This document shows positions 5,814 through 45,428 of a DNA stretch of 45,428 bases, in pieces (the first letter of the stretch is position 1; each line of letters starts with the position of its first letter). This DNA comes from a virus. Lineage: Duplodnaviria > Heunggongvirae > Uroviricota > Caudoviricetes. The position numbers were made by a program, and so were the translations under genes. Under the pieces are notes generated by a model that worked only from the letters and a program-made list of their open reading frames with translations, had not been told where the DNA came from and did no database searches. The stretch is taken from IMG/VR virus record IMGVR_UViG_3300006467_000563, positions 132,337-177,764 of that record. One strand, 5' to 3'.

Positions 5814-5832
5814 TAATTACCCTTTATACATG

Positions 5833-5867: not shown

Positions 5868-5892
5868 AATTTTTTGTTATTTGAACTTACTC

Positions 5893-6906
5893 TTAGAAGG
5901 TTCCCAGAAGGATGCTTCTGTTATCCAGAACACCGTATCCTGAAGAATACCAACCGTAGTAAGAGATAGCCTGACGTCTGTGGAACTCAGGGTCAGAGAA
6001 AATCTCTACGTCCTGTGTTACAGGGTTTACGAAGTCAAGTTTGTGGTTCATATCGATACCAACGAACAACTCAACGTCGTCAGACATATCACCACCCAGT
6101 TTGTTGACAAAATAGTCTTGGTAAGGTTGTCCATTACCGAACTCTACCATTGGGTGAAGGTTTACACCAAACACTCTTGTTAGAGTAGAACTATTGTCCT
6201 GTGCGATGAAGATTTGGTGACGAGAAATATCGTCGATTTGGTCAAGACCCCAGTTACGAACGTCTTCTACACCTTCAACACTTAGGAAGATGTCAGTTAA
6301 CATTCTTTGGTCTTCACTAAATGTGTTACCACCACCGTTACGCTGCATAAGCACCTTGGCGATAGAAACTACACGCTTAGTCAGTTGTCCAGCAACAGCG
6401 TCAGCGTCGTAAGCAACTAAGTTACGGTCTGCACCAGCAAGCAACAGAGTCTGCCAAGAGTTCATGTTGATTTTCTTTTGAAAACCACCTTGAAGAATTT
6501 GCAGAGCACGAGTCAATGCGTTTAAGTTAGGATTTCTAGCTGTACGCATCAGCATGTCGATAGATGATTGAATCTGGAATGAACTAATCTTCACGTAGTC
6601 AGCTTCAATGTATCGCTCAGGGATACGCCCACCGGGAACACCAACGTACGCTACGTACTGGTCTTCCTCACCGGGAGCAAGAAGGTCAACAGGGTACTCA
6701 GGGTCACCGAATTCCCCACGGTCTTCAACAGTGAAGATACCTTGAGTATTATCACCGTCCAAGATAGCTTTACGAATCTGTCCTTGAACAGCTTTAGCAA
6801 AAAGGTCTTGTGCTTCAATAGCAACTTCTCTCTTTACGTGCCCTGTTCTTTGGAACAGGCTCATAAATTCCTTTTTAGCCTTTGCTTCTTGTACTGAATC
6901 AGTCAT
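5893..6906 (-). CDS. Major capsid protein (HK97 fold expected)
   Basis: 337 aa, follows protease and decoration genes, strong SD, own terminator, C-terminal YYGWYSSGYGVLDNRSILLG pattern. Confidence 0.85.
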   Translation of the reverse strand: MTDSVQEAKAKKEFMSLFQRTGHVKREVAIEAQDLFAKAVQGQIRKAILDGDNTQGIFTVEDRGEFGDPEYPVDLLAPGEEDQYVAYVGVPGGRIPERYIEADYVKISSFQIQSSIDMLMRTARNPNLNALTRALQILQGGFQKKINMNSWQTLLLAGADRNLVAYDADAVAGQLTKRVVSIAKVLMQRNGGGNTFSEDQRMLTDIFLSVEGVEDVRNWGLDQIDDISRHQIFIAQDNSSTLTRVFGVNLHPMVEFGNGQPYQDYFVNKLGGDMSDDVELFVGIDMNHKLDFVNPVTQDVEIFSDPEFHRRQAISYYGWYSSGYGVLDNRSILLGTF

Positions 6907-16636: not shown

Positions 16637-16824
16637 TAGTTAAGTACTACTCCATCTTTTACTAGCGACCGAAGCTGTTTAATAACTTTGGTTCTGAGTG
16701 TGTTGACTTCATATTGATACTTTGATAAAATCTCTTCATATAACTCTATATCTTCTTCATTTGCACTATCTTTTAAAAGAATTCTAATGTTTGGTGTATC
16801 GATTTTAGAAGTCATCCATGTCAT
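16636..16824 (-). CDS. Hypothetical protein
   Basis: Overlap-coupled to both neighbours. Confidence 0.5.
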   Translation of the reverse strand: MTWMTSKIDTPNIRILLKDSANEEDIELYEEILSKYQYEVNTLRTKVIKQLRSLVKDGVVLN

Positions 16825-17365
16825 CGGTAGTTTCTCCGACTATTTCTTTGATTTTTGTTATTATTTCTTTTCGACGTTTGATAGGAATTGTTTTTTCCAT
16901 GCCTGTTTTCATTTTCAGGTAATCCTGTCTACAATCTACAGGAAGCTCTCTGTCAATCTTGTCGAAAATTTCTTGATGTAATATCTTAGATGTGAAATTG
17001 GTTGATATCTGCATACTTGACTCTTCTTCATCATCCACCTGTGTGATATCGATAGGGTTCATTAGGTTCATCTTGACATCTGCGTGTTTAGTATCAAGAC
17101 GATAGTAGTTCTTTCTCTTAAAATTCTTAACTCTATTACTTACATATACACGGACAAAGTTTTCTAATTCACCTTTGTCACACTCGAACTTTTCTAACGC
17201 CTGATAGCCTAAGAATATGCACTCTTGGACCATATCTGACTCGTCGTAGTAACCAAACACATATTTTGGTCCTACACTCTCAGCAATACTAATAATCAAC
17301 GCAACGACATCTGACTCAGAGATTCCTAATCCATTTGTAATCCTAATCGGAACTGTCATTTGCAT
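16805..17365 (-). CDS. Sigma-70-like transcription factor
   Basis: DESDMVQECIFLGYQALEKFECDKGELENFVRVYVSNRVKNFKR resembles sigma region 2; start moved to 17365 behind AAGGAG. Confidence 0.7.
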   Translation of the reverse strand: MQMTVPIRITNGLGISESDVVALIISIAESVGPKYVFGYYDESDMVQECIFLGYQALEKFECDKGELENFVRVYVSNRVKNFKRKNYYRLDTKHADVKMNLMNPIDITQVDDEEESSMQISTNFTSKILHQEIFDKIDRELPVDCRQDYLKMKTGMEKTIPIKRRKEIITKIKEIVGETTDDMDDF

Positions 17366-17507
17366 CTTGTTTTGTAAACTCCTTGATGCTTGCTTCTGCA
17401 TCTTCTTCACTTGGGTCAGAAAGCATTAACTCCTCTGATACTCTAGAGTTAAGGTCCGCTGACGCTTTCATTTCAAGTTCTACGTTGTTCTTATCTTCTT
17501 TAGTCAT
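17343..17507 (-). CDS. Small acidic protein (54 aa), first gene of the late operon
   Basis: Not in ORF track; AGAGGA SD; MTKEDKNNVELEMKASADLNSRVSEELMLSDPSEEDAEASIKEFTKQDANDSSD. Confidence 0.6.
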   Translation of the reverse strand: MTKEDKNNVELEMKASADLNSRVSEELMLSDPSEEDAEASIKEFTKQDANDSSD

Positions 17508-33330: not shown

Positions 33331-33628
33331 AAATTATAATGAAGCAATAGAAATTTTTAATAAATATAACTTGATTCTTGCAGATATTCGTACTAGAATT
33401 GAGGAAGGAGACATGGATGCTGCTATAGAGCACTTGAAAACTTTGACAGAAAGAAATAAAAAATTAAAGTATCTTGGATATATGGTAACTGGAAGTGATG
33501 ATTACCGCTCATCGAGACTAATGGAGATGGATATGAATAAGCTCCGAAATATAGTAGATAACGCATCAAGCCCAAATATGACTATGCAGGAAATAATAGA
33601 AGAACATATAAATACAAGCAATGATTAA
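33320..33628 (+). CDS. Hypothetical protein
   Basis: GAGG SD before MGSKNY. Confidence 0.5.
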   Translation: MGSKNYNEAIEIFNKYNLILADIRTRIEEGDMDAAIEHLKTLTERNKKLKYLGYMVTGSDDYRSSRLMEMDMNKLRNIVDNASSPNMTMQEIIEEHINTSND

Positions 33629-33651
33629 GCTGTGACAAATAGGAGTAAAAA

Positions 33652-33816
33652 GTGACCAACATTTCACAATTAGGCAGGTGCGAACCATGTTACTATAAAA
33701 GTTTCCCGGCTAATCTGATGTTTCGGGATGGATACTGGGCACAAGTAGACTATTACACAGAAATAGGAATTCATCTAGGAGTTAGAATAGATTACGGATA
33801 TGGATGGATTTATTAG
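33652..33816 (+). CDS. Small hypothetical protein (54 aa, GTG start)
   Basis: Not in ORF track; AGGAG SD; last gene before terminator. Confidence 0.45.
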   Translation: MTNISQLGRCEPCYYKSFPANLMFRDGYWAQVDYYTEIGIHLGVRIDYGYGWIY

Positions 33817-33844
33817 TTATGCTGTGACATTTTGTTTCGAGTTG

Positions 33845-33876
33845 GGGCACCTAGATTTTTTTGGTGTCCTTTTTTC
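33845..33876 (+). terminator. Intrinsic terminator closing the dense plus-strand block
   Basis: GGGCACC-loop-GGTGTCC then T run. Confidence 0.65.
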
Positions 33877-34106
33877 TTTGCCGACTTAAGTGCGGGTAGT
33901 TAGCAAATGACAATTAAGTTTGAAGTGCCGAGGCGTGAGATAAGGCCCCCCGGTTTTTTGACCAACCTGAACAGGTTCCCACCTGAACGTAAAACCACCC
34001 CCACCGAACTTGTGAACAAATGAGCACATCGGCAGGGGATTTGTAAACCTTGTTTAGTAAGTGCTGCTTAATAAATGTTGTTTAAATAACGTTGTTAAAT
34101 ATTGGG

Positions 34107-34222
34107 GTGGACAAACTACTGAATTCGCGTCTGTGCTCGATTCTCCGCAAATCCGATACAATACCCATGAAACTATCGGAATGCATTAGGGGCGATTCTA
34201 TGAGATTCTAGCCCCATAGCAG
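34107..34222 (+). repeat. ~110 bp dispersed non-coding element, copy A
   Basis: Shares TCGCGT, TCCGATACAATRCCCRTGAA and ATTCTATG..ATTCT.AGCCCCATA blocks with 37028-37145. Confidence 0.8.
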
Positions 34223-34369
34223 AGGTACACTAAACTATTTTGGAATATTTTTTGATTTTATACCGTTTTAGGCTTTTTTAGACTTTTTTTATCCCGATAG
34301 GTTGCTAATATCTTATCAGAGGTTAATCAATGCGGTTAACACGAAACTATCTTTTAAGGAGTTGAGACA

Positions 34370-34597
34370 ATGAGAAAAGCACATGCTAACTTCCACGCCC
34401 CAGAGCCAGTTCAAACCAAACGGACACCAACGGTTGAAGAGTTTGACAAAATGTTATCAGATGCCTTTCAGTTTGCTTTCATGCCTCAAGATGAGGACGA
34501 GTTAATCGAGATGCTCACAGGGAGCGAATCACGCGTAGGATTGAATCGGCAAATTGAAATCATGGAAGAGCACTTCGGTGCTGTTGAGAACTGGTAA
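34370..34597 (+). CDS. Hypothetical early protein
   Basis: TAAGGAG SD. Confidence 0.6.
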   Translation: MRKAHANFHAPEPVQTKRTPTVEEFDKMLSDAFQFAFMPQDEDELIEMLTGSESRVGLNRQIEIMEEHFGAVENW

Positions 34598-34603
34598 GCT
34601 AAT

Positions 34604-34636
34604 GGGGGCCATGACTGGCTCCCCTCTTTACACTTT
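34604..34636 (+). repeat. Inter-gene hairpin element, copy 1
   Basis: GGGGGCCA-TGAC-TGGCTCCCC TCTTTACACTTT. Confidence 0.85.
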
Positions 34637-34650
34637 GAAAGAATAAAACA

Positions 34651-34800
34651 ATGAAACAACACAGTATTGAATGGTGGGTACAATTCATCAGATTCCATTA
34701 TATTCCAGCGGTATACTCACCCCAACGTAATTGCATTAGAGCAGTTGAGCGGTATACTACGCGTGATGATAGAGCAGCAGTTAACTGTAACGTCGATTAA
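34651..34800 (+). CDS. Small hypothetical protein (49 aa)
   Basis: Not in ORF track; MKQHSIEWWVQFIRF..., directly behind hairpin element. Confidence 0.45.
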   Translation: MKQHSIEWWVQFIRFHYIPAVYSPQRNCIRAVERYTTRDDRAAVNCNVD

Positions 34801-34848
34801 CCATTAGACGGAAAAGCCATTGATTCATGGCTCGGATATTAACCACTA

Positions 34849-34881
34849 AGGGGGCCATGACTGGCCCCCTCTTTACACTTT
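34849..34881 (+). repeat. Inter-gene hairpin element, copy 2
   Basis: AGGGGGCCA-TGAC-TGGCCCCCT CTTTACACTTT. Confidence 0.85.
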
Positions 34882-34893
34882 GGAAAGAATGCA

Positions 34894-34986
34894 ATGGATT
34901 GCAAAAAATATCTTCTTATCGTATGGTCCCTGATGGCCATTGCCACAATCTCAACAATCGTTTTTTTTGAAATGGTGTTATCATGA
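34894..34986 (+). CDS. 30 aa single-TM peptide
   Basis: MDCKKYLLIVWSLMAIATISTIVFFEMVLS; ATGA overlap with next gene. Confidence 0.45.
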   Translation: MDCKKYLLIVWSLMAIATISTIVFFEMVLS

Positions 34987-35237
34987 CAGTAAAGGAAGAA
35001 ATCAGAGTTACAAGGCCCGGAAAGTACCCACCAACAACGCCAAGAGAGGGGAGACAAGGCCACTATTTCTATGGCAATAACCTAGTTGAGTGTATTATGA
35101 AAGCTCAGCGTAAGTTCGGTGATGAACTAGTGGACGTCGAATACAATGGGTGGTATATCGGTTCAATCACACAGGCCCAGCCAGAACACAAATTTCCAAA
35201 ACAATCGGTTAATGATTTTGTGGGCTGGTGCCCATAA
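34983..35237 (+). CDS. Hypothetical early protein
   Basis: Ends just before hairpin copy 3. Confidence 0.55.
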   Translation: MTVKEEIRVTRPGKYPPTTPREGRQGHYFYGNNLVECIMKAQRKFGDELVDVEYNGWYIGSITQAQPEHKFPKQSVNDFVGWCP

Positions 35238-35243
35238 CTAACA

Positions 35244-35276
35244 AGGGGGCCAGTCATGGCCCCCTCTTTACACTTT
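35244..35276 (+). repeat. Inter-gene hairpin element, copy 3 (loop inverted)
   Basis: AGGGGGCCA-GTCA-TGGCCCCCT CTTTACACTTT. Confidence 0.85.
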
Positions 35277-35292
35277 AAAAGGAATTACCACA

Positions 35293-35811
35293 ATGAAGAA
35301 ACTAGTCGATATGGTCCCAGTTCGCGACTACTGCCAAAATATGGTTTTATCAGCAGATGAAGCTAGAACACTACGACAAAACGTGCGTAACATGTATTGC
35401 GTATGCAATCTGCAGGAATTAGAATCTGCTCTTATCCATCATAAGGAAAACCCAACAATGCGGGGAAATGAGGAAACGATTGCATTCATTCAAGAGTTAA
35501 TTGATGAGTGTAATCTGGATTTATCAGGGCGGATTATCCGGTATGTTGATTATACCGTATTGTCTGAGCTGCTGAGCCACACAATGCGAATGCAACGTAT
35601 GTTATTCGGAGATTCCTTCATGACTGAACAGGAATTGAGAGGGGCCTTATCAGACCCTTACGTATACTGTGAAGATTATTTACAGTCGGCACTGGAAAAC
35701 ATGTTTCTGCATCACGTACGCGTTGGTGGTCGTGAACGTCAAACCAAATTCTCTGATATCCATATTGACCACACTAAACAGATAGTAACAATCTGGCTTG
35801 CTATCAAGTAA
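35293..35811 (+). CDS. Hypothetical early protein
   Basis: AAGGA SD, 172 aa. Confidence 0.6.
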   Translation: MKKLVDMVPVRDYCQNMVLSADEARTLRQNVRNMYCVCNLQELESALIHHKENPTMRGNEETIAFIQELIDECNLDLSGRIIRYVDYTVLSELLSHTMRMQRMLFGDSFMTEQELRGALSDPYVYCEDYLQSALENMFLHHVRVGGRERQTKFSDIHIDHTKQIVTIWLAIK

Positions 35812-35828
35812 TCAACAACAATAACCAA

Positions 35829-35860
35829 AGGGGGGCCATATGGTCCCCCTATTTGCATTT
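35829..35860 (+). repeat. Inter-gene hairpin element, copy 4 (diverged)
   Basis: AGGGGGGCCA-TA-TGGTCCCCCT ATTTGCATTT. Confidence 0.7.
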
Positions 35861-35869
35861 GAGGATATC

Positions 35870-35995
35870 ATGAAAACATTATCGTATTTTGTAGCTCTGC
35901 TCTTATTCTCCCTATGCTCAGTTCTATTCTGGCATGCTCTTATATCGATTCTAGGGACATCTCTAAACGTTGGGGTTGATGGTCGGCCATTATGA
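35870..35995 (+). CDS. 41 aa membrane peptide
   Basis: Not in ORF track; GAGGA SD; MKTLSYFVALLLFSLCSVLFWHALISILG... Confidence 0.5.
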   Translation: MKTLSYFVALLLFSLCSVLFWHALISILGTSLNVGVDGRPL

Positions 35996-36153
35996 GGGAT
36001 TTAATCATACACGTTGCTGCTGTGCTCGCTATCGCTCTTATATCGGTTCTTACAATCCGTTGTGCGGTTTCATTGTGGAAACATGACGATGTAAAAAGGT
36101 TGATTGAAGAGGGTAACAAGAACGGCGGCACTACTGCACATCTAAACATGTAA
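35992..36153 (+). CDS. 53 aa membrane peptide
   Basis: Not in ORF track; ATGA overlap; MRDLIIHVAAVLAIALISVLTIRC... Confidence 0.5.
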   Translation: MRDLIIHVAAVLAIALISVLTIRCAVSLWKHDDVKRLIEEGNKNGGTTAHLNM

Positions 36154-36370
36154 TATACGCCTGTTCAGGTAGTATACATCTGTCTACTAGGGTGACAAAT
36201 AGTCACCCTTTTTTTACGTATACACATATCCACTACGCGACCGCCGCCAGACCGCCGCCCGCCGCCGCGATAACTGCACACTTGTCAACTGCCCGCCCGT
36301 ACATGCATACAGGCCAGACCGTTAGCCATTTGTTCAGTGCTTGTCAGTCCACGCTGTTCGTCCGTCCAAG

Positions 36371-36456
36371 AAACGGGTTTGTAACGGGTTGACAAACCCG
36401 TTTGCCCAGAATGCACATAGTTAGCCGTTTTCCTATTTTACCTAGCTTGCCGGGGG
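36371..36456 (+). repeat. Array leader copy 1 (hairpin, GCACATAGTTAGC, G run)
   Basis: AAACGGGTTTGT...ACAAACCCGTTT hairpin; homologous to 39151-39235 and 41237-41318. Confidence 0.75.
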
Positions 36457-36975
36457 AATTACTTAGGAAAGTTTAGAAAGTAATTCGGTTCCCGAACCGC
36501 AGGAGTTTGTTAATAAACCTTATTAATTAATTCGATACCGCGACCGCAGGACATTTCTTAAGAAACTTTATTAAATAATCCGGCGTGGGAATTTCTTAGG
36601 AAACTTTATTAACTAACTATGTAATTAGTAAAGTTAATTAAATAATTCGGGAGCGGCAACGGAAAAGTTATTTAGGAAAGTTAATTAAGTAAATCACCTG
36701 TTCACCAAGTGTACGCATGGGCAATTTGTTAGGAAAGTTTACAAACTAATGAATTACTTAAGAAAGTTAATTAAGTATTGAATTACTTAAGAAACCTTAG
36801 AAACTAATAATTACTTAGGAAACTTTATAAACTAAGAAATTTCTTAATAAACATTACTAAATAATTGAACATTGTACATGTATAGTGTACACAAATTTTT
36901 TTATTTCTGTTTTCGTGTACAAACCGTTATATGTATACTACCGGCCAATTACTTAATAAACGTTATTATATAATG
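36457..36975 (+). repeat. Array 1: 12 copies of degenerate 29 bp quasi-palindrome AATTACTTAGGAAA-S-TTTATTAAnTAATT
   Basis: Unit starts 36457, 36504, 36552, 36590, 36619, 36666, 36723, 36752, 36781, 36809, 36838, 36947; GC-rich spacers or abutting. Confidence 0.9.
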
Positions 36976-37027
36976 CAGCAAAAAATGTGCCAAACTCACG
37001 TGAGCAAATTTCATGCCAAAAAAACTA

Positions 37028-37145
37028 GTGTACAAACACCTGTAAATCGCGTGTATGGGCAAACTATTTGTTTTCCGATACAATGCCCGTGAATTCATTA
37101 TAACTCAATACAGGGCATTCTATGCATTCTCAGCCCCATAACGGG
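37028..37145 (+). repeat. ~110 bp dispersed non-coding element, copy B
   Basis: Colinear with 34107-34222. Confidence 0.8.
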
Positions 37146-37246
37146 TGACCAGTGCACAAGTGTGAACAAAATTCCTTTTATATTTATATAGTATATAACT
37201 ATTTCCGGGAATCTTGCTAAAAATAAAAAAACGATTAAAGTATCTA

Positions 37247-37274
37247 TTGCAATCTGCCGGGGATGTGATACAAT
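37247..37274 (+). promoter_or_regulatory. Sigma-70-type promoter with A-rich UP element
   Basis: TTGCAA-16-TACAAT with TGn; homologous to the promoter at 39504. Confidence 0.65.
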
Positions 37275-37344
37275 GCAATGCATGATGAGGTTAACGCAAA
37301 CAAGTTAACTAAACCTGCAAGCGGTTATAACCCGCATGCATGAC

Positions 37345-37356
37345 GTTCTTTGACAA
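37345..37356 (+). promoter_or_regulatory. boxA-like antitermination element
   Basis: GTTCTTTGACAA in a structured 5' leader. Confidence 0.5.
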
Positions 37357-37414
37357 TTTGGTAAAATCTTGAGCCGTAGCGTCCGTTCACCTACTCTTTT
37401 TTGGAGGATGTGCT

Positions 37415-37732
37415 ATGCTGCACACAAGTATAGTTGGCATGAAAAATGGTCTGATTGATATGCTGGACGCGTGTTCAGAAGACAATCTGGCCGAAACATG
37501 TGAACAAGTAATCAGTGCTATACGTCTGACGTCTGGCATGTGGGTTGAGTGTTCATACGGATACAAAGCCGTAGAATTGATGGACAAAATCAACCTAATG
37601 TGTACAGAAGTCATCGAATCTGGTGTACACTATATGAAACGTGACCGTCTGAAAGCCGTGCGGAGTGCATCTGTACAGCTAAGTCAGTTCATGTTCCGTG
37701 CACACCAAAAAAACATGTACGCATGTGTATAG
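37415..37732 (+). CDS. Hypothetical early protein
   Basis: GGAGGA SD. Confidence 0.6.
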   Translation: MLHTSIVGMKNGLIDMLDACSEDNLAETCEQVISAIRLTSGMWVECSYGYKAVELMDKINLMCTEVIESGVHYMKRDRLKAVRSASVQLSQFMFRAHQKNMYACV

Positions 37733-37803
37733 TCTGACCAGTTCGCCAGTCTGGAGAAAACTGGCAATCTTCAAAATACTTTTAAGTTTTTTCTAAAATG
37801 GGG

Positions 37804-37832
37804 TTGACATACAATAGTCAATAGACTATAAT
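37804..37832 (+). promoter_or_regulatory. Perfect consensus sigma-70 promoter
   Basis: TTGACA-17-TATAAT. Confidence 0.9.
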
Positions 37833-37881
37833 CTCCTTAGTCAAGTCACTTTTTTAAACATGCTTTTTAGGAGCAAACACT

Positions 37882-38757
37882 ATGAACGCTACTCAAGAAA
37901 TCCAGAACAAAGTCCGCGAAGCCTTCAATTTCTCTGTTGTCAAGGCCCCCCTGTTTGGACCAGACAACACTCGTACAGGTCTGTCAGGTCTGTTCCGCGA
38001 CGATGATTTTTCACTGGTGGGAAATTCATCTGTGAAGGACCGATACACGCCGCACACTACGGAAGACGTGGTTGCAATCGTCGATGCCGCAAGTGAGGCA
38101 TTTGACGGGGACATTGATATCCAGTGCAATTTCAAGCATGGACATTACGTCACCATCGCACCAAGTCTGGATTATCGTAAACAGATTTACGGTACTGACA
38201 TCGTATTCCCCCGGCTGCTGGTTAACGCATCCTACGATGGACGTGCATTTCGGGCAACTATGGGCATGTATCGTGATATGTGCCGAAACATGATGATGAT
38301 GCGTCAAGTGAACCAGACAAGTCAGGCAATCCGCCATACGTCCGGCTTGCGTGACAAAATGGATGAACTTATCCAGACCTTTTCGGTTCTCCGCGAGTCA
38401 TGGGACAATATCGGGGACGCAATCGACCACATGAACGAACGTAAGGTCGATGTACGCCAGTTCATTATGGGGCTGTACGGTACTCCGAATGAAAATTCCA
38501 GCAAGTCGGTTACCATGCATGAAAAACGCATGGAAGCCATTCTGACGCGGCTCCGCGATGAATCCCGCAAGTGCGGTCTTGATAACCCGCTGGTAACCGG
38601 CGAAACTAACGGATGGCTGATGTACAATGCCGTTCAGGGATACGCTCAACATGATTCCATCCGGCGTAAGGATACGACTGATTTTGAGAAAATCCTGTCG
38701 AGCCATGACGATAAATTCGTGAAGGAGGCAGAACGGCTGCTGCTGGCCGCTGTTTAA
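37882..38757 (+). CDS. DUF932-family phage/plasmid protein
   Basis: VKDRYTPH, LLVNASYDG, YRDMCRNM, IRHT, WLMYNAVQGY match the DUF932/TIGR03299 pattern. Confidence 0.8.
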   Translation: MNATQEIQNKVREAFNFSVVKAPLFGPDNTRTGLSGLFRDDDFSLVGNSSVKDRYTPHTTEDVVAIVDAASEAFDGDIDIQCNFKHGHYVTIAPSLDYRKQIYGTDIVFPRLLVNASYDGRAFRATMGMYRDMCRNMMMMRQVNQTSQAIRHTSGLRDKMDELIQTFSVLRESWDNIGDAIDHMNERKVDVRQFIMGLYGTPNENSSKSVTMHEKRMEAILTRLRDESRKCGLDNPLVTGETNGWLMYNAVQGYAQHDSIRRKDTTDFEKILSSHDDKFVKEAERLLLAAV

Positions 38758-38763
38758 CCCTCT

Positions 38764-38793
38764 GGGGGGAGAAATCCCCCCTCTTTTCTTTTC
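38764..38793 (+). terminator. Intrinsic terminator
   Basis: GGGGGA-GAAA-TCCCCC then T-rich tract. Confidence 0.7.
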
Positions 38794-38819
38794 TTCATGT
38801 TTCTATTGAGGTTTTACCG

Positions 38820-38975
38820 ATGAACCGATACACAAAATACGCTCGCTCGTTTGGCTGGTCTGGCATGCCAGTTTACGTCGTCAATGGTCTGGTCTATTTC
38901 AATTACCGCATGCGGGGTGAGGGAATCGACTGGTTTGAGTTTATGGATGATGTACGTGGGGGCCGAACTAACTAA
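38820..38975 (+). CDS. Small hypothetical protein (51 aa)
   Basis: Not in ORF track; GAGGT SD; MNRYTKYARSFGWSGMPVYVV... Confidence 0.55.
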   Translation: MNRYTKYARSFGWSGMPVYVVNGLVYFNYRMRGEGIDWFEFMDDVRGGRTN

Positions 38976-38993
38976 GTAATCAAGATTGTATTT

Positions 38994-39027
38994 ACCGTCT
39001 ATCCCTTTTGGGGTAGGCGGTTTTTTT
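38994..39027 (+). terminator. Intrinsic terminator
   Basis: ACCGTCTATCCC-TTTT-GGGGTAGGCGGT then T run. Confidence 0.85.
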
Positions 39028-39150
39028 ACGTACATAGAAAAGCGATAGACGGGCCTATACGCGTCCGCTTTGAATTGCTGTCCCTTTTATCATGCCAGAC
39101 CGCAAACGCTCGCTACGCTTTAATGACGGGCCTATCTGGTGACCTTTGAA

Positions 39151-39235
39151 ACATGGCTTGTCACGGCTTGACAAGCCGTGTAGCCTGTATGCACATAGTT
39201 AGCTAGTTAGTCGTTTTTGTGTTCGCCGCAGGGGG
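39151..39235 (+). repeat. Array leader copy 2
   Basis: ACATGGCTTGTCA...TGACAAGCCGTGT hairpin, ATGCACATAGTTAGC, GCCGCAGGGGG. Confidence 0.75.
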
Positions 39236-39457
39236 AATTTGTTAGGAAAGTTTATTAAATAAGTACTTAATTAAGAAAGTTTAGAAAGTATCTCCAGAGC
39301 TGTTGCTGCAAGTTTACTTAGGAAAGTTTACTAATTAATTCGAGTCCGACTGTGGAATTATTTAGGAAAGTTTATTAACTATCTAATTACTTAGGAAGAT
39401 TTATTAAGTAATTTCGTTCACCAAACGGAATTTGTTAGTAAGGTTTCTTAACTAAGT
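39236..39457 (+). repeat. Array 2: 6 copies of the 29 bp quasi-palindrome
   Basis: Unit starts 39236, 39265, 39312, 39356, 39385, 39429. Confidence 0.9.
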
Positions 39458-39503
39458 GTACATTCCCATTATTGAGAAATATAGAAAAACGATTAAAGTA
39501 GAC

Positions 39504-39531
39504 TTGTAATCCTGTCGGGGCGTGCTATAAT
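39504..39531 (+). promoter_or_regulatory. Sigma-70-type promoter
   Basis: TTGTAA-16-TATAAT with TGn; upstream AAAAACGATTAAAGTA shared with the 37247 promoter. Confidence 0.7.
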
Positions 39532-39569
39532 GCATATATCACTGGAACATAACACTAAAGGATAAAATC

Positions 39570-39731
39570 ATGGATAAACCATTACTTGAGGTAAAGGGCT
39601 TTTTTGGCCAGTGGCTGGTCTGCTGTTCAGGTGCTATCCTGTTCATGGAAGTGTACGAACGTGAAGGGTATACGCTCAGCCATGATAGCTCTCTCTCTAC
39701 TATGAAAGATTTACTTTTAGCAGGATTCTAA
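39570..39731 (+). CDS. Small hypothetical protein (53 aa)
   Basis: Not in ORF track; AAGGA SD; MDKPLLEVKGFFGQWLV... Confidence 0.55.
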   Translation: MDKPLLEVKGFFGQWLVCCSGAILFMEVYEREGYTLSHDSSLSTMKDLLLAGF

Positions 39732-39733
39732 AC

Positions 39734-39997
39734 ATGGAAATTGTTGGTGTACTAGTACACGACTGGGTTGACGGGGAACGTGTTCAGAATGATTCCTTGA
39801 CTAAAGTATGGGGAATCGGTTCAAGTCGTGATGTAAGTATCGTCGAAGCGGAGCAATATTTTGTGTCGCTCCTGAACAAGCACGACCTTGATAGTGCTAT
39901 TGTAGAGTATTATCTTGAAAAGGGTTTTTACTACTGTCCAAAAGCGGAGCGGAGATACTTTTTTATCAATTGTAAGCTGGAAGAGGTTACTTCTTAA
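39734..39997 (+). CDS. Hypothetical early protein
   Basis: Coupled ORF. Confidence 0.55.
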   Translation: MEIVGVLVHDWVDGERVQNDSLTKVWGIGSSRDVSIVEAEQYFVSLLNKHDLDSAIVEYYLEKGFYYCPKAERRYFFINCKLEEVTS

Positions 39998-40026
39998 AAA
40001 TGCAGAAAAAAAGATAGGGGGCGGGT

Positions 40027-40055
40027 TTGACTCTCCCCTATCACTCTGCTATACT
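40027..40055 (+). promoter_or_regulatory. Sigma-70-type promoter
   Basis: TTGACT-17-TATACT with TGn. Confidence 0.75.
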
Positions 40056-40093
40056 TCAATCATACAATTAACCATCTAATAAGGGGTAAGTAA

Positions 40094-40288
40094 ATGGCTC
40101 GTGTTACACTGAAAACAGTATTGTATCACGCTGAGCAGTGGGGTGTTCAGGTGCAGGAAATTGGCCATCGTCGCTGGGAAGTGTCCCATCCTAATGTACA
40201 GGGCATGACTGGCGAAGTGGACAATGTACAGGACCTGTGGAGCGAAGTATACGACTTTGCAAGAATGGCCGGAAAAGTGGAGGAATAG
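40094..40288 (+). CDS. Hypothetical early protein
   Basis: AAGGGG SD, own promoter. Confidence 0.6.
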   Translation: MARVTLKTVLYHAEQWGVQVQEIGHRRWEVSHPNVQGMTGEVDNVQDLWSEVYDFARMAGKVEE

Positions 40289-40290
40289 GG

Positions 40291-40319
40291 TTGACGCCCT
40301 ATTTTTTCCCTGCTATACT
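40291..40319 (+). promoter_or_regulatory. Sigma-70-type promoter
   Basis: TTGACG-17-TATACT; near copy of the 40027 promoter. Confidence 0.75.
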
Positions 40320-40358
40320 TCAAGCATAACTGAAACATTTCTCATAAGGGACAAAGTA

Positions 40359-40700
40359 ATGGCGTTTGAGTATACAGATACTTCTATCAAGATTGCAATT
40401 GACCGTGATTCGTCTGTTAAGACTCATCAGATGTTTATCCATCACAGCGGCGGTTCTCGCGAAAAGGCATACCTGTTCTGTGTTGAATTGTTTCATCCAG
40501 AAACTCTGTGCACACATGCTCCTATCTATGTTCTGGCTGAGGACACCGAAGGAGCTATCCATCAGGCAACCTGCGTAAATGGTGAATTTGATAGCAAAAT
40601 GTATGATGGTGGTGGTGAATTCAGCACGACTGTATTAAAGGAATCCTCAGTAAAGCGTCTCCATCTGGCCATTCGCGGCTGGGGTGGTCAACAGTTCTAA
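40359..40700 (+). CDS. Hypothetical early protein
   Basis: Start moved to MAFEYT behind AAGGGA and the promoter. Confidence 0.6.
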   Translation: MAFEYTDTSIKIAIDRDSSVKTHQMFIHHSGGSREKAYLFCVELFHPETLCTHAPIYVLAEDTEGAIHQATCVNGEFDSKMYDGGGEFSTTVLKESSVKRLHLAIRGWGGQQF

Positions 40701-40803
40701 CATAACTCTATGTCCAAAGGGTACTAGGTAAGGTTTAAAGAGGAAGAACGCCATCTTCCCGCCCGCTTTCTTCATTTAGTAATTCTTGATTTAGGAGAGA
40801 GAC

Positions 40804-41154
40804 ATGTTATCACCAGAAAGAGCAGCACTACTGCGAAAAAATAAACCAAACATTGCAGCATATCAAAAACGGGCAATCGGTGATTCTGCTGATATGTTCG
40901 ACTGTAAATACAAATACGAAGATGGTTCTGTCTGTGCTGCGTCGGCGTGCTTCACAGATGCGGAGAGAGAACTGGTTTTCCTGATTGACAATGATGCACC
41001 AATAGACGAACATCAACGCACACTGAAGTTATCAGACGATGAATTGACCACACTAGGAAATCTGCAAAGTGCTCATGACGCATATATGCAAAACGGATGC
41101 AACAAGAATTTCAATCACTTCGATGAACTAGTGAAGGATGTATTAGGCGAATAA
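40804..41154 (+). CDS. Phage early protein (CxY..DG..CA...LQxxHD family)
   Basis: CKYKYEDGSVCAASAC...LQSAHD; paralog of 43793..44122. Confidence 0.6.
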   Translation: MLSPERAALLRKNKPNIAAYQKRAIGDSADMFDCKYKYEDGSVCAASACFTDAERELVFLIDNDAPIDEHQRTLKLSDDELTTLGNLQSAHDAYMQNGCNKNFNHFDELVKDVLGE

Positions 41155-41172
41155 TACAAACAACAACAATCT

Positions 41173-41207
41173 ATCCTCTTGCCTGTAATGGGTAAGGGGA
41201 TTTTTTT
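41173..41207 (+). terminator. Intrinsic terminator
   Basis: ATCCTCTTGCC-loop-GGTAAGGGGAT then T run. Confidence 0.8.
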
Positions 41208-41236
41208 ACGCCTACTCTTTTTTCTCTTGCTGAATA

Positions 41237-41318
41237 GCCGTTGTCATGCGATAACCAACGGCATAGCGATTCCGCAGATAGTTAGCGAGTTAGCAGTATT
41301 CTATCTGGCGGCGGGGGG
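41237..41318 (+). repeat. Array leader copy 3
   Basis: GCCGTTG...CAACGGC hairpin, GCAGATAGTTAGCGAGTTAGC, GGCGGCGGGGGG. Confidence 0.7.
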
Positions 41319-41525
41319 ATTTTCTTAGGAAACTTTACTAACTAATTCGGTAGGCACAACGGCGAAATAATTAGGAAACCTTACTAACTAAATATGGACG
41401 ACGTAGGATTTATTTAGGAAACTTTAGAAAATAAATCGAGAGTGAGAAAGCAAAAATTGTTAGTAAACTTTATTAACTAATTTTGTGAACGCATGTATTT
41501 TTTTAGTAAACTTTCTTAAGTACTG
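41319..41525 (+). repeat. Array 3: 5 copies of the 29 bp quasi-palindrome
   Basis: Unit starts 41319, 41365, 41408, 41454, 41497; spacers 14-17 nt; orphan copy near 41885-41913. Confidence 0.9.
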
Positions 41526-42164
41526 TTCATTGATGCACTTATGGAAAATATATGTACACTGAACGTTAGCCACTAGTGAAAATCCCATCTTTTTATCGTT
41601 TCTATATGTTGCTTTTGTGGCGAAAGTATCAAAAATTGCTGTTGAGTGTATTCGGGGTATCCCTAGTATACAAAAAACATATAAACCGCCTATACATGTT
41701 GAAAAAACGAAATGTGCAGGTGTACGAAAAATGGATGATTTTTGCCTGAAATAGTGTCATGGGTTAACTATTTTCTGTGATTTGCCCCATTTTTTCCTGC
41801 TGAACATTTGAAAAGTGAACATTTTTTTACTCGTGAGGACCTGTCTATGGTGATTTTTTGATGAGTAGTGTACAATTTTTGGAGGATTTTTTAGTAAACT
41901 TTAGAAAATAACAAGCGTTTGGTGCATAAATAGTAGTGTTTCGGTAGTCAAGAGGTGTGGAAGACTGTATTTCAAAACTATACCCCCGTTCCCAAGCGTC
42001 AGCTTGTGTATAGTATTCTTTATAATTATATTATGTATAGTTCTTATATGTATAGGTGATAAATCTATGTATATAGTGCCCTATTTTCACTACTGTTCAG
42101 TGTATTATTAAATAATCAGGAAAGTATATAAATCGTAGGCTTAAATCGATATTTGTACACATAC

Positions 42165-42257
42165 GCTAGAAGGCTCTCAGAGGCGTTTTAATGCATTATT
42201 ATTTTCTACGGTATAATCTACGGACTAAGCAGAGAAACGCACACACAAGCGAAGCAG
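42165..42257 (-). repeat. ~110 bp dispersed element, copy C (inverted, diverged)
   Basis: Aligns to reverse complement of copy A: GCTAGAA..CTC..AGA..CG..TAATGCATT...GGTAT...CGGA...GC.GAGAA.CG..CACA...GCGAA..CAG. Confidence 0.6.
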
Positions 42258-42359
42258 GGAGCCAGAAACAATACAACAACGATAACGAGATAATTCTAGC
42301 TTATTTATTTATTAGCAGAGAAAAAAGGGCGAATAATTCACAATTCTTTCTGATTAGGC

Positions 42360-42388
42360 TTGACAATAGATTGTATGGTTGGTAAGCT
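42360..42388 (+). promoter_or_regulatory. Sigma-70-type promoter, probably leaderless transcript
   Basis: TTGACA-17-TAAGCT, ATG 6 nt downstream. Confidence 0.7.
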
Positions 42389-42394
42389 ACCATT

Positions 42395-42625
42395 ATGAAA
42401 ACACGAGACATCACAACAGAAGAGAGAACCGAGCTGGATACGGCTTGGAATAAATATCACAAGACTGTAGATGAACTGCACAAAAATCAGCCTAACGACT
42501 GGCCAAAAAAACTTGATGCCGCGTATGCTGAATATAAAGAAACCATGAATGCATTAAACATCATATCTACTCTTGCAGGTTACAGGGTAAAAATTGAATG
42601 TTCAGAAAAATCCTCTGCTGGCTAG
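42395..42625 (+). CDS. Hypothetical early protein
   Basis: Directly behind promoter. Confidence 0.55.
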   Translation: MKTRDITTEERTELDTAWNKYHKTVDELHKNQPNDWPKKLDAAYAEYKETMNALNIISTLAGYRVKIECSEKSSAG

Positions 42626-42743
42626 GCTGGCATAAATGGAATGATTGCGGCTGGATACGATACTGCAATCACTGCAAGCTATCACAACATTTTCACGTTC
42701 ATGAAGAAATCATAATTCATGGACAAGTGTATTATGAAGGAAA

Positions 42744-43289
42744 ATGGGAGAATCGCACGTGAGAGAAGTCACAAAAACATTCAAAATACTAAAGTATGAT
42801 GAATTGTCTGATGAAGCGAAACAGGCAATCCGTGACCGATGGCAAGCGGCTGACGGTTATACATTCGCCACAGAAGCAATGGAAAGCCTGAATACTCTTG
42901 CGATGTATTTTGGTGGAAAAGTCAAAGATTACCAAATTGACTTTTTTGACGCATACTGTCCTTCTTGGTGTATTTTTGAGATGCCAGAACGAGATGCGGA
43001 AGACATTGCAGAATTATTAGAGGAACTAGGCACATATAACCCGGAAACATTACACGGGCTTGGTGATTGTGTATTGACTGGTGTCTGTTGTGATGAATGG
43101 CTAATTGACGGCTTTCGTGAAGCATGGCACACTGGACAACGTAATCTTAACCATTTAATGAGCAAAGCATTCGACAACTGGCTAAAAATGTGTCAAGAGG
43201 ATTGCGAGTATTCGTATTCTGATGAATGTATGTCTGAAACATGCGAAGCGAACTACTACGAATTTTATGAAGATGGAACAATCTTCTAA
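42744..43289 (+). CDS. Conserved mobile-element protein (YxELSDEAK...EANxYEFxEDG family)
   Basis: Family often labelled antitoxin of toxin-antitoxin stability system in annotations; function not established. Confidence 0.65.
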   Translation: MGESHVREVTKTFKILKYDELSDEAKQAIRDRWQAADGYTFATEAMESLNTLAMYFGGKVKDYQIDFFDAYCPSWCIFEMPERDAEDIAELLEELGTYNPETLHGLGDCVLTGVCCDEWLIDGFREAWHTGQRNLNHLMSKAFDNWLKMCQEDCEYSYSDECMSETCEANYYEFYEDGTIF

Positions 43290-43306
43290 AAACTGACGAA
43301 ACAGGC

Positions 43307-43334
43307 TTGACACACACACGAAAATGTAGATAAT
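43307..43334 (+). promoter_or_regulatory. Sigma-70-type promoter upstream of a non-coding structured region
   Basis: TTGACA-16-GATAAT. Confidence 0.55.
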
Positions 43335-43336
43335 AG

Positions 43337-43585
43337 AGACTCAGACATGAAGGTTATCCTTTAGAAAAGCAAATAATGAAGGGAGCGAGCCATGTAACAC
43401 GCGGGAGAAAGTCTCGCAGCGACTGGGAATCGAAAGTTGGTGCCGTCTGACCGGGAAACTGCTTATGCTGAAACTGCTTAGACGGCGCCTTTTAATCATG
43501 AGTATATTTTAAGAGGGGCTGTATTAGGTAGGTCGGTCTTTATCTTCTAGCCTACATGAACATTTAGACTGCTAATACAGTCCCA
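43337..43585 (+). ncRNA. Candidate structured non-coding RNA
   Basis: No ORF of 60 aa or more; stems GCGGGA/TCTCGC, GGTGCCGTCTGA/TTAGACGGCGCC, GGGGCTGTATTAG/CTAATACAGTCCC with G-U pairs. Confidence 0.5.
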
Positions 43586-43618
43586 TTGAAAGTATATTCT
43601 TACTCTTATAAGGAAAGT

Positions 43619-43789
43619 ATGATGCAAGAAGAGAAAAATAGACTCCTGAGATATGCATTGCTTGTAGGCCATGAAGGAAATTGGCTTGCTAATGGTGAGG
43701 ATTGTATTCCCGCATTAAATTCATTACAGTCTGACGGACTGATTGAGCGGGATGAAACAGGTAAAAAGTGGCGTCTAATCATAGGGTGA
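43619..43789 (+). CDS. Small winged-helix-like protein
   Basis: ALNSLQSDGLIERDETGKKWRL; AAGGA SD before MMQEEK. Confidence 0.45.
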   Translation: MMQEEKNRLLRYALLVGHEGNWLANGEDCIPALNSLQSDGLIERDETGKKWRLIIG

Positions 43790-43792
43790 ATA

Positions 43793-44122
43793 ATGAAATT
43801 ATCACAAAAGAGTAGCGAAAATTTTCGTAACAATCTGCATAAAATTGCCGCATTGAACGGTAATAGATGTATGATAGGTGAATTATCCAGACGGTATGAA
43901 GATGGTACAATTTGTGCTGGCATGGCTTGTCTATCAGAATCTGAGCAAGATGTAGCAGCAGAAGACAACGTGGGCACAATGTCTTCATATGCAAGACGTA
44001 ATAATTTTTCAGCGGATGATACTTTTATCATAAATGAATTGGAAAATATACACGATGATGTGATGCTTGGTGATACTCTAGTGTCTGCACTACTTCAATC
44101 AATCGGCAAGTATTTAGCATAA
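43793..44122 (+). CDS. Phage early protein, paralog of 40804..41154
   Basis: RYEDGTICAGMACLSESE...LENIHD. Confidence 0.6.
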   Translation: MKLSQKSSENFRNNLHKIAALNGNRCMIGELSRRYEDGTICAGMACLSESEQDVAAEDNVGTMSSYARRNNFSADDTFIINELENIHDDVMLGDTLVSALLQSIGKYLA

Positions 44123-44125
44123 GGC

Positions 44126-44206
44126 ATATATTTCATGTACAACTGTATGGGGCCTAATGTTAGTTTTTAATCCTTCTAACACTGTACAGTTGTGCTTAAA
44201 GTATAT
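44126..44206 (+). other. Long intergenic RNA hairpin
   Basis: GTACAACTGTATGG/CTGTACAGTTGTGC 14 bp stem with three G-U pairs plus flanking stems. Confidence 0.6.
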
Positions 44207-44242
44207 TTCTGAAACTTTTTCTCTTTTTTGGGTTGAAAACCG

Positions 44243-44479
44243 ATGGATGAGATGCTAGAATACAGGGCAGAAATGACCGATACTTTCGGTGGTGAAGCGA
44301 ATTACTGTTGGGTTGATAGAACGGCTGGCAAGAAAAGGAGCGAACTTGCAGTCGTGAGGGAAGTAAAAAAGGCTTTCGGGATTACTGGTTTACGATGTGC
44401 TCGTGAGGATTATATGGATAGTATTGTATTACGTCCATACGGCATGAATATTATTGTTTTTATCAATTTTCAGTTCTAG
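44243..44479 (+). CDS. Conserved phage early protein (TDTFGGEANYxWV family)
   Basis: Recognisable motif; start uncertain because TTGAAA-17-TAGAAT overlaps it. Confidence 0.65.
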   Translation: MDEMLEYRAEMTDTFGGEANYCWVDRTAGKKRSELAVVREVKKAFGITGLRCAREDYMDSIVLRPYGMNIIVFINFQF

Positions 44480-44484
44480 TTAGG

Positions 44485-44513
44485 TTGACACTACACATAA
44501 AACAGATTACAAT
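44485..44513 (+). promoter_or_regulatory. Sigma-70-type promoter
   Basis: TTGACA-17-TACAAT. Confidence 0.75.
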
Positions 44514-44621
44514 TACTGTAGAATCAGAAGAGCAAGTAGAAACAATCCAGAACCTGCTTCAAGAGGCAGAAGAGGAATGTATTATTGATTTTCCTTTTAA
44601 CACGAAGGTAGAGGATGTAAA

Positions 44622-44903
44622 GTGAAATACAAAACTACCAAAGTATTCGAGACAGCGAACATGCCTGATTTTGTTGTCGCTTGGGTTGGTGACCTGTTTT
44701 ATGATGCGTGTAGCGATACAGTAGGCATGTATGTATTCTGTGAATCAGAAGTTGAAGAGATTGCCGAATGTCAAGATATACATCAATGGTTTCTTGATAA
44801 TGGATGTGTTCCGGGTGAACATATTATCCTAGAACGTGGTACGTGGACAGCTAACCACAATACTACGCTTGAGTCACTATATGGCAAACAAAATAAGGAT
44901 TAA
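44622..44903 (+). CDS. Hypothetical early protein
   Basis: GAGGA SD, GTG start. Confidence 0.55.
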   Translation: MKYKTTKVFETANMPDFVVAWVGDLFYDACSDTVGMYVFCESEVEEIAECQDIHQWFLDNGCVPGEHIILERGTWTANHNTTLESLYGKQNKD

Positions 44904-44906
44904 ACT

Positions 44907-45083
44907 ATGTTGACAGTACAATCTGAGCAAGATATTATCATGGAACGATTCAAGGCTAATTTATCTCACACAGATAAAGCTACCATGAATGTATACATGG
45001 AATTCCTACTGAGCGATGAAACAAGCTGGGAAAATTTTGTAGAAAAAGTGAAGCGTGCACTTGACGATACATGTAATATCTGA
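44907..45083 (+). CDS. Small hypothetical protein (58 aa)
   Basis: Not in ORF track; AAGGA SD; MLTVQSEQDIIMERFK... Confidence 0.5.
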   Translation: MLTVQSEQDIIMERFKANLSHTDKATMNVYMEFLLSDETSWENFVEKVKRALDDTCNI

Positions 45084-45090
45084 TAAGCTG
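45062..45090 (+). promoter_or_regulatory. Sigma-70-type promoter
   Basis: TTGACG-17-TAAGCT with TGn. Confidence 0.6.
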
Positions 45091-45130
45091 TAGTCTGTTC
45101 GGTATGAGTGTTAGTTAAAAACAGGAGTGT

Positions 45131-45403
45131 ATGATGGATTTTTCATATGAGTATGTTGGTATCGTAGAAATTAACGGTGATGTGATTACTGTTGTACGTC
45201 ATGGTAATTATATAATCATGGGGAGTGTATGTAATGTCGGTTTATTTGCCGAATATATGTACACTATCGACGACTTCTACTCTTTTGAAGAGAATCTTCA
45301 AGAATGTATTCTCGATTTAGAGGTTGCGTGTACAGAGGGTATGCAATACACGACTGAAAATTTTCAATATTTTGATACAACTCTGTTGACACCAGAAGCC
45401 TAA
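45131..45403 (+). CDS. Hypothetical early protein
   Basis: AGGAG SD. Confidence 0.6.
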   Translation: MMDFSYEYVGIVEINGDVITVVRHGNYIIMGSVCNVGLFAEYMYTIDDFYSFEENLQECILDLEVACTEGMQYTTENFQYFDTTLLTPEA

Positions 45404-45414
45404 CCTGCTAAGAT
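45386..45414 (+). promoter_or_regulatory. Sigma-70-type promoter
   Basis: TTGACA-17-TAAGAT with TGn. Confidence 0.7.
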
Positions 45415-45428
45415 ACACCCATCAGACA

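Follow-up and report, generated by a model that had tools for sequence, protein, structure and literature searches.

A conserved leader module at the upstream edge of repeat arrays in uncultured large phages, with a hairpin variant in one lineage

Analysis of a 45,428-nt window (IMG/VR record IMGVR_UViG_3300006467_000563, positions 132,337 to 177,764), the terminal 45 kb of a phage record of 177,764 bp and 89% completeness, showed three arrays of 29-bp AT-rich repeat units, each headed by a leader. This leader is a conserved non-coding module of approximately 90–110 bp, fixed at the upstream edge of the array and known from a small clade of large, uncultured phages, and it is without a described counterpart. 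The hairpin by which these leaders were picked out in an earlier reading of the letters (hereafter the sequence-only reading) is a lineage-specific variant in which pairing has been maintained. With a probability of about 0.5, the leader would be a DNA-level site at which proteins load or nucleate at the polar upstream edge of each array.

Relatives were reached solely via neighbouring proteins, through which contigs of three more phages came to light: L099, with a protein of family DUF932 91% identical to the one encoded between arrays 1 and 2 of the window and mosaic elsewhere; N (contigs L103, L104, L357, and L358), with a DUF932 protein 56% identical; and E (L356, part of a 159-kb contig). 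The four phages held nine leaders, namely W1, W2, and W3 in the window, L099A and L099B, Na and Nb, and Ea and Eb. The motifs TGT(C/A)A and TAGTTAGC were invariant in all nine, 37 or 38 bp apart from start to start whether a hairpin or a G-rich block intervened, and the first array unit carried TTAGGAAASTTTA in every case. A second AGTTAG(C) was located 8–10 bp downstream of TAGTTAGC in 7/9 leaders, and CCTATCTT itself or a variant differing at one or two bases was likewise present in 7/9. Most leaders held one or two copies of GTTAGC, with four additional tandem ones (period ~19 bp) ahead of Na and two ahead of Ea. The core motifs, their spacing, and the first unit were kept although DUF932 was only 56% identical and the adjacent non-coding DNA could not be aligned. 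All nine leaders lay directly upstream of an array with at least two units, and leader and units were always oriented as the flanking genes. A profile of the leader core recovered the nine leaders and duplicates of the same phages (E 1e-18 to 3e-8), with no other significant hit across the 178-kb genome plus 2.9 Mb of other DNA (next best E ~0.007). The linkage to arrays proposed in the sequence-only reading therefore held in four phages, with no leader found elsewhere.

Within the window, direct reading and an inverted-repeat search agreed with the sequence-only reading on the places of the hairpins, the GCA(C/G)ATAGTTAGC boxes, and the G-runs, and TTGT(C/A)A was present on all three 5' arms, as had been noted. 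The three leaders are homologous and were alignable over ~115 nt, from the hairpin to the first unit. The features are:

36189–36216, + strand, terminator of the upstream gene at the start of non-coding module 1 (8-pair stem and T-run, then TTTTTTTACGT)
36371–36403, + strand, hairpin of leader 1 (12-bp stem, 9-nt loop in which the 5'-arm heptamer ACGGGTT recurs as a second direct copy)
36413–36425, + strand, box GCACATAGTTAGC of leader 1 (TAGTTAGC starts 38 bp after the TGTAA at 36380)
36432–36439, + strand, CCTATTTT of leader 1, a variant of the CCTATCTT motif
36452–36485, + strand, G5 run of leader 1 and first array unit (GGAATTACTTAGGAAAGTTTAGAAAGTAATT)
36455–36866, + strand, array 1 (11 units; a further solitary unit at 36949)
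38994–39028, + strand, intrinsic terminator preceding leader 2
39151–39181, + strand, hairpin of leader 2 (13-bp stem including one T.G pair, 5-nt loop)
39191–39210, + strand, box GCACATAGTTAGC of leader 2 (39191–39203) and second AGTTAG
39231–39457, + strand, G5 run and array 2 (6 units)
41173–41208, + strand, intrinsic terminator preceding leader 3
41237–41262, + strand, hairpin of leader 3 (7-bp stem, 12-nt loop)
41274–41294, + strand, box GCAGATAGTTAGC of leader 3 (41274–41286) and second AGTTAGC
41299–41306, + strand, TTCTATCT of leader 3, a variant of the CCTATCTT motif
41313–41525, + strand, G6 run and array 3 (5 units; a further solitary unit at 41887)

A strong terminator ending in TTTTTTTACG was found upstream of each window leader, and the TTTTTTTACGT tail also followed the terminators preceding leader 2, L099A, and Ea of L356. 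GC content was 48–54% in the leaders, 29% in the arrays, and 38% in the window. The hairpin had been placed at a near-fixed 82–86 bp upstream of the array; measured from hairpin start to first unit, the distance was 84, 83, and 80 bp, close to that estimate, but its constancy held inside the window phage only. Across phages, the first unit began 71–97 bp from TGTCA and 33–59 bp from the box. Since the box–array distance varied to this extent, the near-fixed 80–84 bp in the window reflects the close kinship of its three copies, and the spacing that is fixed is the one from TGTCA to TAGTTAGC. The G-runs (36452–36456, 39231–39235, and 41313–41318) each adjoined the first unit, as had been described, but they are not a separate element, because the GC-rich spacers within the arrays also end in ..GCAGG, ..GTGGG, or ..ACGG; each run closes the first GC-rich half-unit and is longer in the window leaders.

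A consensus search and a position weight matrix located units at 36459–36840, 39238–39431, and 41321–41499, besides the solitary ones at 36949 and 41887, and gave one weak match in the rest of the 178-kb genome. The consensus from 45 sites in the four phages was (G)AATTnnTTA(G/A)(G/T)AAA(C/G)TTTAnTAAnTAA. Symmetric positions of AATT.nTTA..AAA.TTT..TAA.TAA were nearly invariant, the GG of TTAGGAAA varied (28/45 and 32/45), and some units were full 31-bp palindromes. Such conservation would fit a dimeric DNA binder and not a GGA-type RNA motif; a CsrA-type GGA sponge was rejected, the GG being the least conserved part of the unit core. Copies were 69–87% identical to the reference unit and irregularly spaced at 28–57 bp: adjacent units stood 28–29 bp apart, and others were separated by mutually similar GC-rich stretches of 9–28 nt ending in GG. 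Unit number ranged from 2 to 12 between phages. The leader-proximal unit was the best consensus match in 8/9 arrays, a count that includes all six arrays outside the matrix, several of them orthologs, and distal units decayed.

Homology between the window and L099 ran from window 37757–39098 straight to window 41464–41898, with breakpoints inside arrays 2 and 3 (window 39098–41464 vs. L099 5370–5520). In L099 the beginning of array 2 is fused to the end of array 3, and the five small genes at 39570–41154 and leader 3 are absent; the arrays serve as junctions at which a gene cassette recombines. A (T)GTTCACCAA motif was also observed in arrays of three phages, either internally or distally (window 36695–36715 and 39414–39428; L099 1458–1490; L356 9850–9880), followed by CCTGTCAAGTG in L099 and L356.

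The hairpin was present in only four of the nine leaders, W1, W2, W3, and the ortholog L099A. Its arms were AAACGGGTTTGT (36371–36382) and ACAAACCCGTTT (36392–36403) in leader 1, with 12/12 pairs; ACATGGCTTGTCA (39151–39163) and TGACAAGCCGTGT (39169–39181) in leader 2, with 13 pairs, one of them T.G; and GCCGTTG (41237–41243) and CAACGGC (41256–41262) in leader 3, with 7/7 pairs. Folded as single-stranded DNA (ssDNA), hairpins 1, 2, and 3 reached −12.1 kcal/mol (z −3.4), −12.7 kcal/mol (z −5.2), and −7.1 kcal/mol (z −2.2), with 0/200, 0/200, and 8/200 dinucleotide shuffles as good, respectively. RNAalifold recovered the hairpin from the alignment of the four leaders. Where it exists, the earlier claim of differing arms with kept pairing was borne out: 5/10 pairs had changed on both sides in the four sequences, and paired cells amounted to 90%, vs. 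73% in column shuffles and 25–45% with slid partners. On four measures none of the shuffles came up to the observed value, and on a fifth 2/500 did; all slid controls were surpassed. Stems of 7–13 bp were retained in these diverged leaders, with one mismatch in L099A, although the arms differed at many positions. Pairing is real and maintained in one lineage, but it does not define the leader.

The remaining leaders (L099B, Na, Nb, Ea, and Eb) carried a conserved G-rich block, TGTCAYGGGYTGG..GGCGGGATG, where the 3' arm would be; their folds gave z ~0 against shuffles, and no helix with compensating changes was found in them. What had been proposed as a general, selected structure of the leader thus survives in part, namely as a conserved, array-linked leader with pairing kept in one lineage, and fails in that the hairpin is not universal and its distance not fixed. 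Either selection or repeated re-templating would account for the kept pairing, which may serve as a dyad site or as a stem-loop of the + strand in single-stranded form. In 3/4 hairpin leaders (W1, W2, and L099A) the loop held a heptamer copy co-varying with both arms (ACGGGTT/ACGGGTT/AACCCGT; ATGGCTT/ACGGCTT/AAGCCGT; ACGGGCT/ACGGGCT/GACCGT). By pairing with the 3' arm, this copy can give rise to an alternative, shorter hairpin; in leader 2 the 7-bp ACGGCTT/AAGCCGT uses the 3' arm of the 13-bp stem. The sole non-Watson–Crick pair of W2 is T.G on the + strand and would be A.C on the other. The hairpins were not among 19 terminator-like sites: they were followed on the + strand by GCCCAGAA, AGCCTGTA, and ATAGCGAT, and no T-run was present on the minus strand either. 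A search of 33500–45428 against Rfam gave one sub-threshold match only, outside the leaders (MicX, 25 bits vs. a gathering score of 75).

TTGACA was indeed embedded in hairpins 1 and 2, but a promoter reading of it was not supported. The hexamers 16–19 bp downstream of TTGACA as a −35 element are ATGCAC, TGCACA, GCACAT, and CACATA, none of which fits TAnnnT, and the promoter scan listed no site in any leader and none pointing from a leader into its array. TTGACA was absent from 7/9 leaders and is a by-product of palindromy, made up of the conserved loop YTG and the arm ACAA, the complement of the conserved TTGT. TAGTTAGC occurs in six copies on the + strand of the genome, four of them in array modules, and is too rare for a general promoter element. 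The leader is neither a sigma-70 promoter nor the leader of a clustered regularly interspaced short palindromic repeats (CRISPR) array.

Other known signals were considered, and most were rejected. A sigma-54 reading of the G-rich block, made by eye, found GG and GC 12 bp apart in Nb, but GC is GT in Na and Ea and GG is GA in W1. A sigma-28 site was rejected from the sequence, a LexA box (CTGT-N9-ACAG) on its wrong spacing, a Pho box on the single TGTCAY copy, and the DnaA box GTATGCACA on its occurrence in only two leaders. The box and CCTATCTT, taken as a −35/−10 pair, stood 17–18 bp apart in four leaders but 7, 13, and 26 bp apart in others. The G-rich block, with three G3 runs and one G2 run, may form a G-quadruplex, though not a canonical one. 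Early promoters carried an upstream AAAAACGATTAAAG-type element (window 37214–37274 and 39472–39531), which is common to the much more distant DUF932 phage L348, where it occurs throughout the sequence and arrays are absent.

Loading of proteins at the DNA level is favoured because the short invariant motifs keep their spacing regardless of the intervening sequence, because the copy number of GTTAGC varies as that of protein sites does, because the units are dyad-symmetric, and because a strong first unit precedes decaying units in the same orientation. The module runs in the order TGT(C/A)A, 37–38 bp, TAGTTAGC, usually a second AGTTAG(C), usually CCTATCTT, a GC-rich half-unit ending in G, and the best-conserved unit. 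Putative sequence-specific proteins would recognise the motifs of the leader together with the strong first unit, and binding would then spread one way over the weaker units that follow. In the scan, each leader was preceded by a strong terminator and followed by the next early promoter, and the arrays lie in these silent gaps. In the hairpin lineage, the segment that is a G-rich block elsewhere would have become the inverted complement of its 5' flank. We infer protein binding and nucleation from this arrangement, and with them a biological role that might be origin-like firing or the control or insulation of early transcription units. That the module does something in cis is almost certain, because its motifs, the 37–38 bp spacing, and the strong first unit survive between phages with neighbouring proteins of ~50% identity, and phages rarely conserve the non-coding DNA of their early regions. 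The anatomy can now be tested, as it specifies which bases and spacing matter and which unit is the likely entry site, and it marks the eye-catching hairpin as a variant of one lineage and not as the core of the leader. Binding partners, or a role in priming or transcription, if found, could explain the organisation and timing of early gene cassettes in these large phages.

Several observations weigh against such a loading site. The small open reading frames (ORFs) beside the leaders matched neither Pfam nor PHROG and offer no candidate for the binding protein. Searches of the 89%-complete genome likewise gave no ParB, Phage_rep_O, Prim-Pol, integrase, or resolvase. Only four phages are known, several of their leaders are orthologs, and the compensating changes were scored in four sequences. 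The co-varying loop copy may point to alternative pairings, or else to three copies homogenised by local copying and not by selection. Extrusion of a cruciform from the duplex is improbable for hairpins 1 and 3 because of their loops of 9 and 12 nt. If the stem acts at all, it more likely does so in + strand RNA or ssDNA, although the indications are thin, and a model of binding to the duplex leaves it unexplained.

Action at the RNA level is an unlikely alternative in which the leader would be transcribed on the + strand, by terminator read-through or from an unrecognised phage-specific promoter, and its hairpin would head a non-coding array transcript as a signal for processing, pausing, or antitermination, or as a switch between the long hairpin and the short one that use a common 3' arm. 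It would account for the compensating changes in four leaders, the + strand T.G pair of W2, the loops of 9–12 nt, which suit single strands, and the orientation of leaders and units with the flanking genes. The second arm copy permits an alternative 7-bp hairpin in W1, W2, and L099A (also seen in a minus-strand fold), and a weak sigma-like ORF at 16805–17410 makes promoters other than sigma-70 conceivable. However, the leaders hold no promoter-like site and have strong terminators immediately upstream, no Rfam match was obtained for them, and whole-leader RNA folded no better than shuffles in W1, W3, and L099A (z −0.6, 0.0, and +0.4). Moreover, 5/9 homologous leaders have neither the hairpin nor a conserved RNA helix with compensating changes, TAGTTAGC with its six + strand copies is no general promoter motif, and the conservation of the units is dyad-symmetric, as in DNA sites.

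An iteron-style origin or control locus seems quite unlikely, given that three to four such modules occur within 8 kb and that arrays of different phages have anything between 2 and 12 units. In this reading, an initiator would bind the units and unwind the DNA there, the GC-rich leader would act as a clamp and supply accessory sites, and the + strand hairpin, exposed on unwinding, would signal priming or primosome assembly as ssDNA. Two to twelve direct, dyad-symmetric, AT-rich sites beside GC-rich DNA with at least two other recurring motifs do resemble such a locus, as does a strong first site followed by weaker ones in the same orientation, known from ordered initiator filaments; the hairpin suits ssDNA best, and promoters are nearby. 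No recognisable initiator was found, however (Phage_rep_O and Prim-Pol were absent from the 89%-complete genome, and Rep_3 was not searched), the modules have no consensus DnaA box and one-mismatch boxes at background frequency, and GC skew only tracks gene orientation. It is also rather doubtful that the modules are by-products of repeat dynamics, i.e., recombination-prone intergenic cassettes that shuffle early genes, with a palindrome kept perfect by template switching in a triplicated heptamer and not by structural selection. Copying would simply explain why two direct copies and one inverted copy of the arm heptamer co-vary, and the hairpin is confined to one lineage; the absence from L099 of a five-gene block with leader 3, at breakpoints inside arrays 2 and 3, agrees with it, and the PeSL cassettes provide a precedent (PMC2839356, PMC4122927). 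Against this reading, the motifs, the 37–38 bp spacing, and the first unit are kept between phages with 56% identical DUF932 proteins and unalignable adjacent non-coding DNA, and four diverged leaders with many arm differences retain stems of 7–13 bp, one mismatch in L099A aside.

Comparison with known systems gave partial likenesses. As in CRISPR, a conserved leader adjoins the first repeat, the repeats run one way, the leader-proximal one is the most canonical, and distal ones decay. Judged by near-identical repeats with unique spacers of similar length (~26–72 nt), the arrays differ from CRISPR: their repeats are 69–87% alike and dyad-symmetric, and the gaps of 0–28 nt are variants of one GC-rich half-unit. 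Unlike the AT-rich, promoter-bearing CRISPR leader, those described here have 48–54% GC and no promoter-like site, and Cas1 (PF01867) had no match in the 178-kb, 89%-complete record, with a positive control in seven genomes. Iteron and centromere arrays, such as the lambda ori iterons, P1 incC/incA, F sopC, and R1 parC, are tandem, same-orientation, and often dyad-symmetric protein sites in non-coding DNA. The accessory flanking sites and the contrasting base composition of the modules resemble these by likeness and not by homology; in contrast, there is no sequence likeness, several arrays stand close together, and the units are 29 bp long at irregular 28–57 bp spacing. No adjacent initiator or Par gene was found: ParB_N was absent from the genome, ParA was not searched, and the neighbouring ORFs had no Pfam match. 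Tyrosine and serine recombinases (integrase, PF00589; resolvase, PF00239), by which polar dyads of the lox/FRT/attC kind would be judged, likewise had no match in the genome, with positive controls.

The hairpin promoters of the phage N4 virion RNA polymerase have stems of 5–7 bp and loops of 3 nt. They share with the leaders a hairpin of variable stem sequence beside conserved bases at a fixed distance, but the stems here are 7–13 bp, the loops 5–12 nt, and five homologous leaders have no hairpin; a search for a T7/N4-type polymerase, run without a positive control, gave no match. The first-step-transfer region of phage T5 contains untranslated repeat regions, including the injection stop signal, in an order conserved among relatives whose neighbouring ORFs are not (bioRxiv 10.1101/866236). 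As conserved, unexplained repeat blocks among early genes, it is the closest conceptual parallel (bioRxiv 10.1101/866236). Judged by the paired DnaA boxes, 3 bp apart and enclosed by large inverted repeats of the terminal repeat, that mark such a region or signal, the modules differ: they have no consensus DnaA box, and they share neither sequence nor motifs with it. The PeSL cassettes of T4-like phages combine a compact stem-loop terminator with an early sigma-70 promoter, flank small early ORFs, and are located at mosaic breakpoints (PMC2839356, PMC4122927). They too are repeated intergenic modules, a terminator and a promoter flank each module described here, and one mosaic junction fell within the arrays; the difference lies in the leader of 90–110 bp and the array of up to 12 units placed between terminator and promoter.

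A bolder and quite improbable extension is that leader and array form an undescribed, cas-independent polar repeat system of large phages. The leader would be read single-stranded and would set the site and direction of protein, priming, or transcription entry into 29-bp operators; in one lineage it would have a pair of hairpins that use one 3' arm and exclude each other, and in the others the G-rich block. If true, it would amount to a new phage origin or primosome-loading site, or to a new class of non-coding array transcript.

The genes of the phage are oriented on the + strand from approximately window 17.7 kb up to the contig end and onward as far as genome 108 kb, and the late, structural block is on the minus strand. 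The array modules are located among many small early genes, each with a sigma-70-type promoter and an intrinsic terminator in the promoter and terminator scan. Known families cover the phage poorly, with PHROG matches to the portal and large terminase only. A 201-aa ORF at 16805–17410 on the minus strand heads the minus-strand late block; it gave a weak, sub-threshold match to Sigma70_r2 (18.5–20.3 bits) and may be a candidate phage sigma factor.

In the phage GenBank collection, the phage had neither a DNA nor a protein match. IMG/VR scans for ATAGTTAGC..GGGGRWTT, for the repeat core, and for TAGTTAGC..AGTTAGC gave, among the matches listed, only single chance matches, none with arrays, and one pattern scan of JGI metagenomes similarly gave, among the matches listed, chance matches only and no arrays. 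More distant DUF932 phages (L343–L355) had neither leaders nor arrays. A 78-aa neighbouring protein led to an unrelated P22-like phage, and a 51-aa one had the L099 homolog only among 1.8 billion representatives. Strains L100–L102 were near-identical (≤2 base differences in 9 kb) and uninformative, and one 968-bp contig was set aside, its flank being too short.

Four non-coding modules of the window (33816–34370, 36153–37415, 38975–39570, and 41154–42191) together held 8 of the 32 genome copies of GTGTACA (either strand) vs. 0.6 expected, and GTTCAC (7/48) and GTTAGC (7/69) were likewise enriched, with optimistic P-values, since the motifs were chosen after being seen. The one at 33816–34370 is a fourth, decayed module with a terminator, TAGTTAGC at 33897, a GC-rich stretch like L356 4440–4545, and unit-like remnants at ~34040–34095; it has no TGTCA at 37–38 bp from TAGTTAGC. 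Tandem GGAACGTTAGC/GGAACGTTAGCWAAAAT-type repeats with a period of ~19 bp were observed just upstream of Na (four, L103 45–118) and Ea (two, L356 6828–6862). A leader-like fragment, TGTCATGGGTTAAC.. (window 41755–41913), precedes the solitary unit at 41887 by ~130 bp and is kept in L099 at 5805–5948 with ~84% identity.

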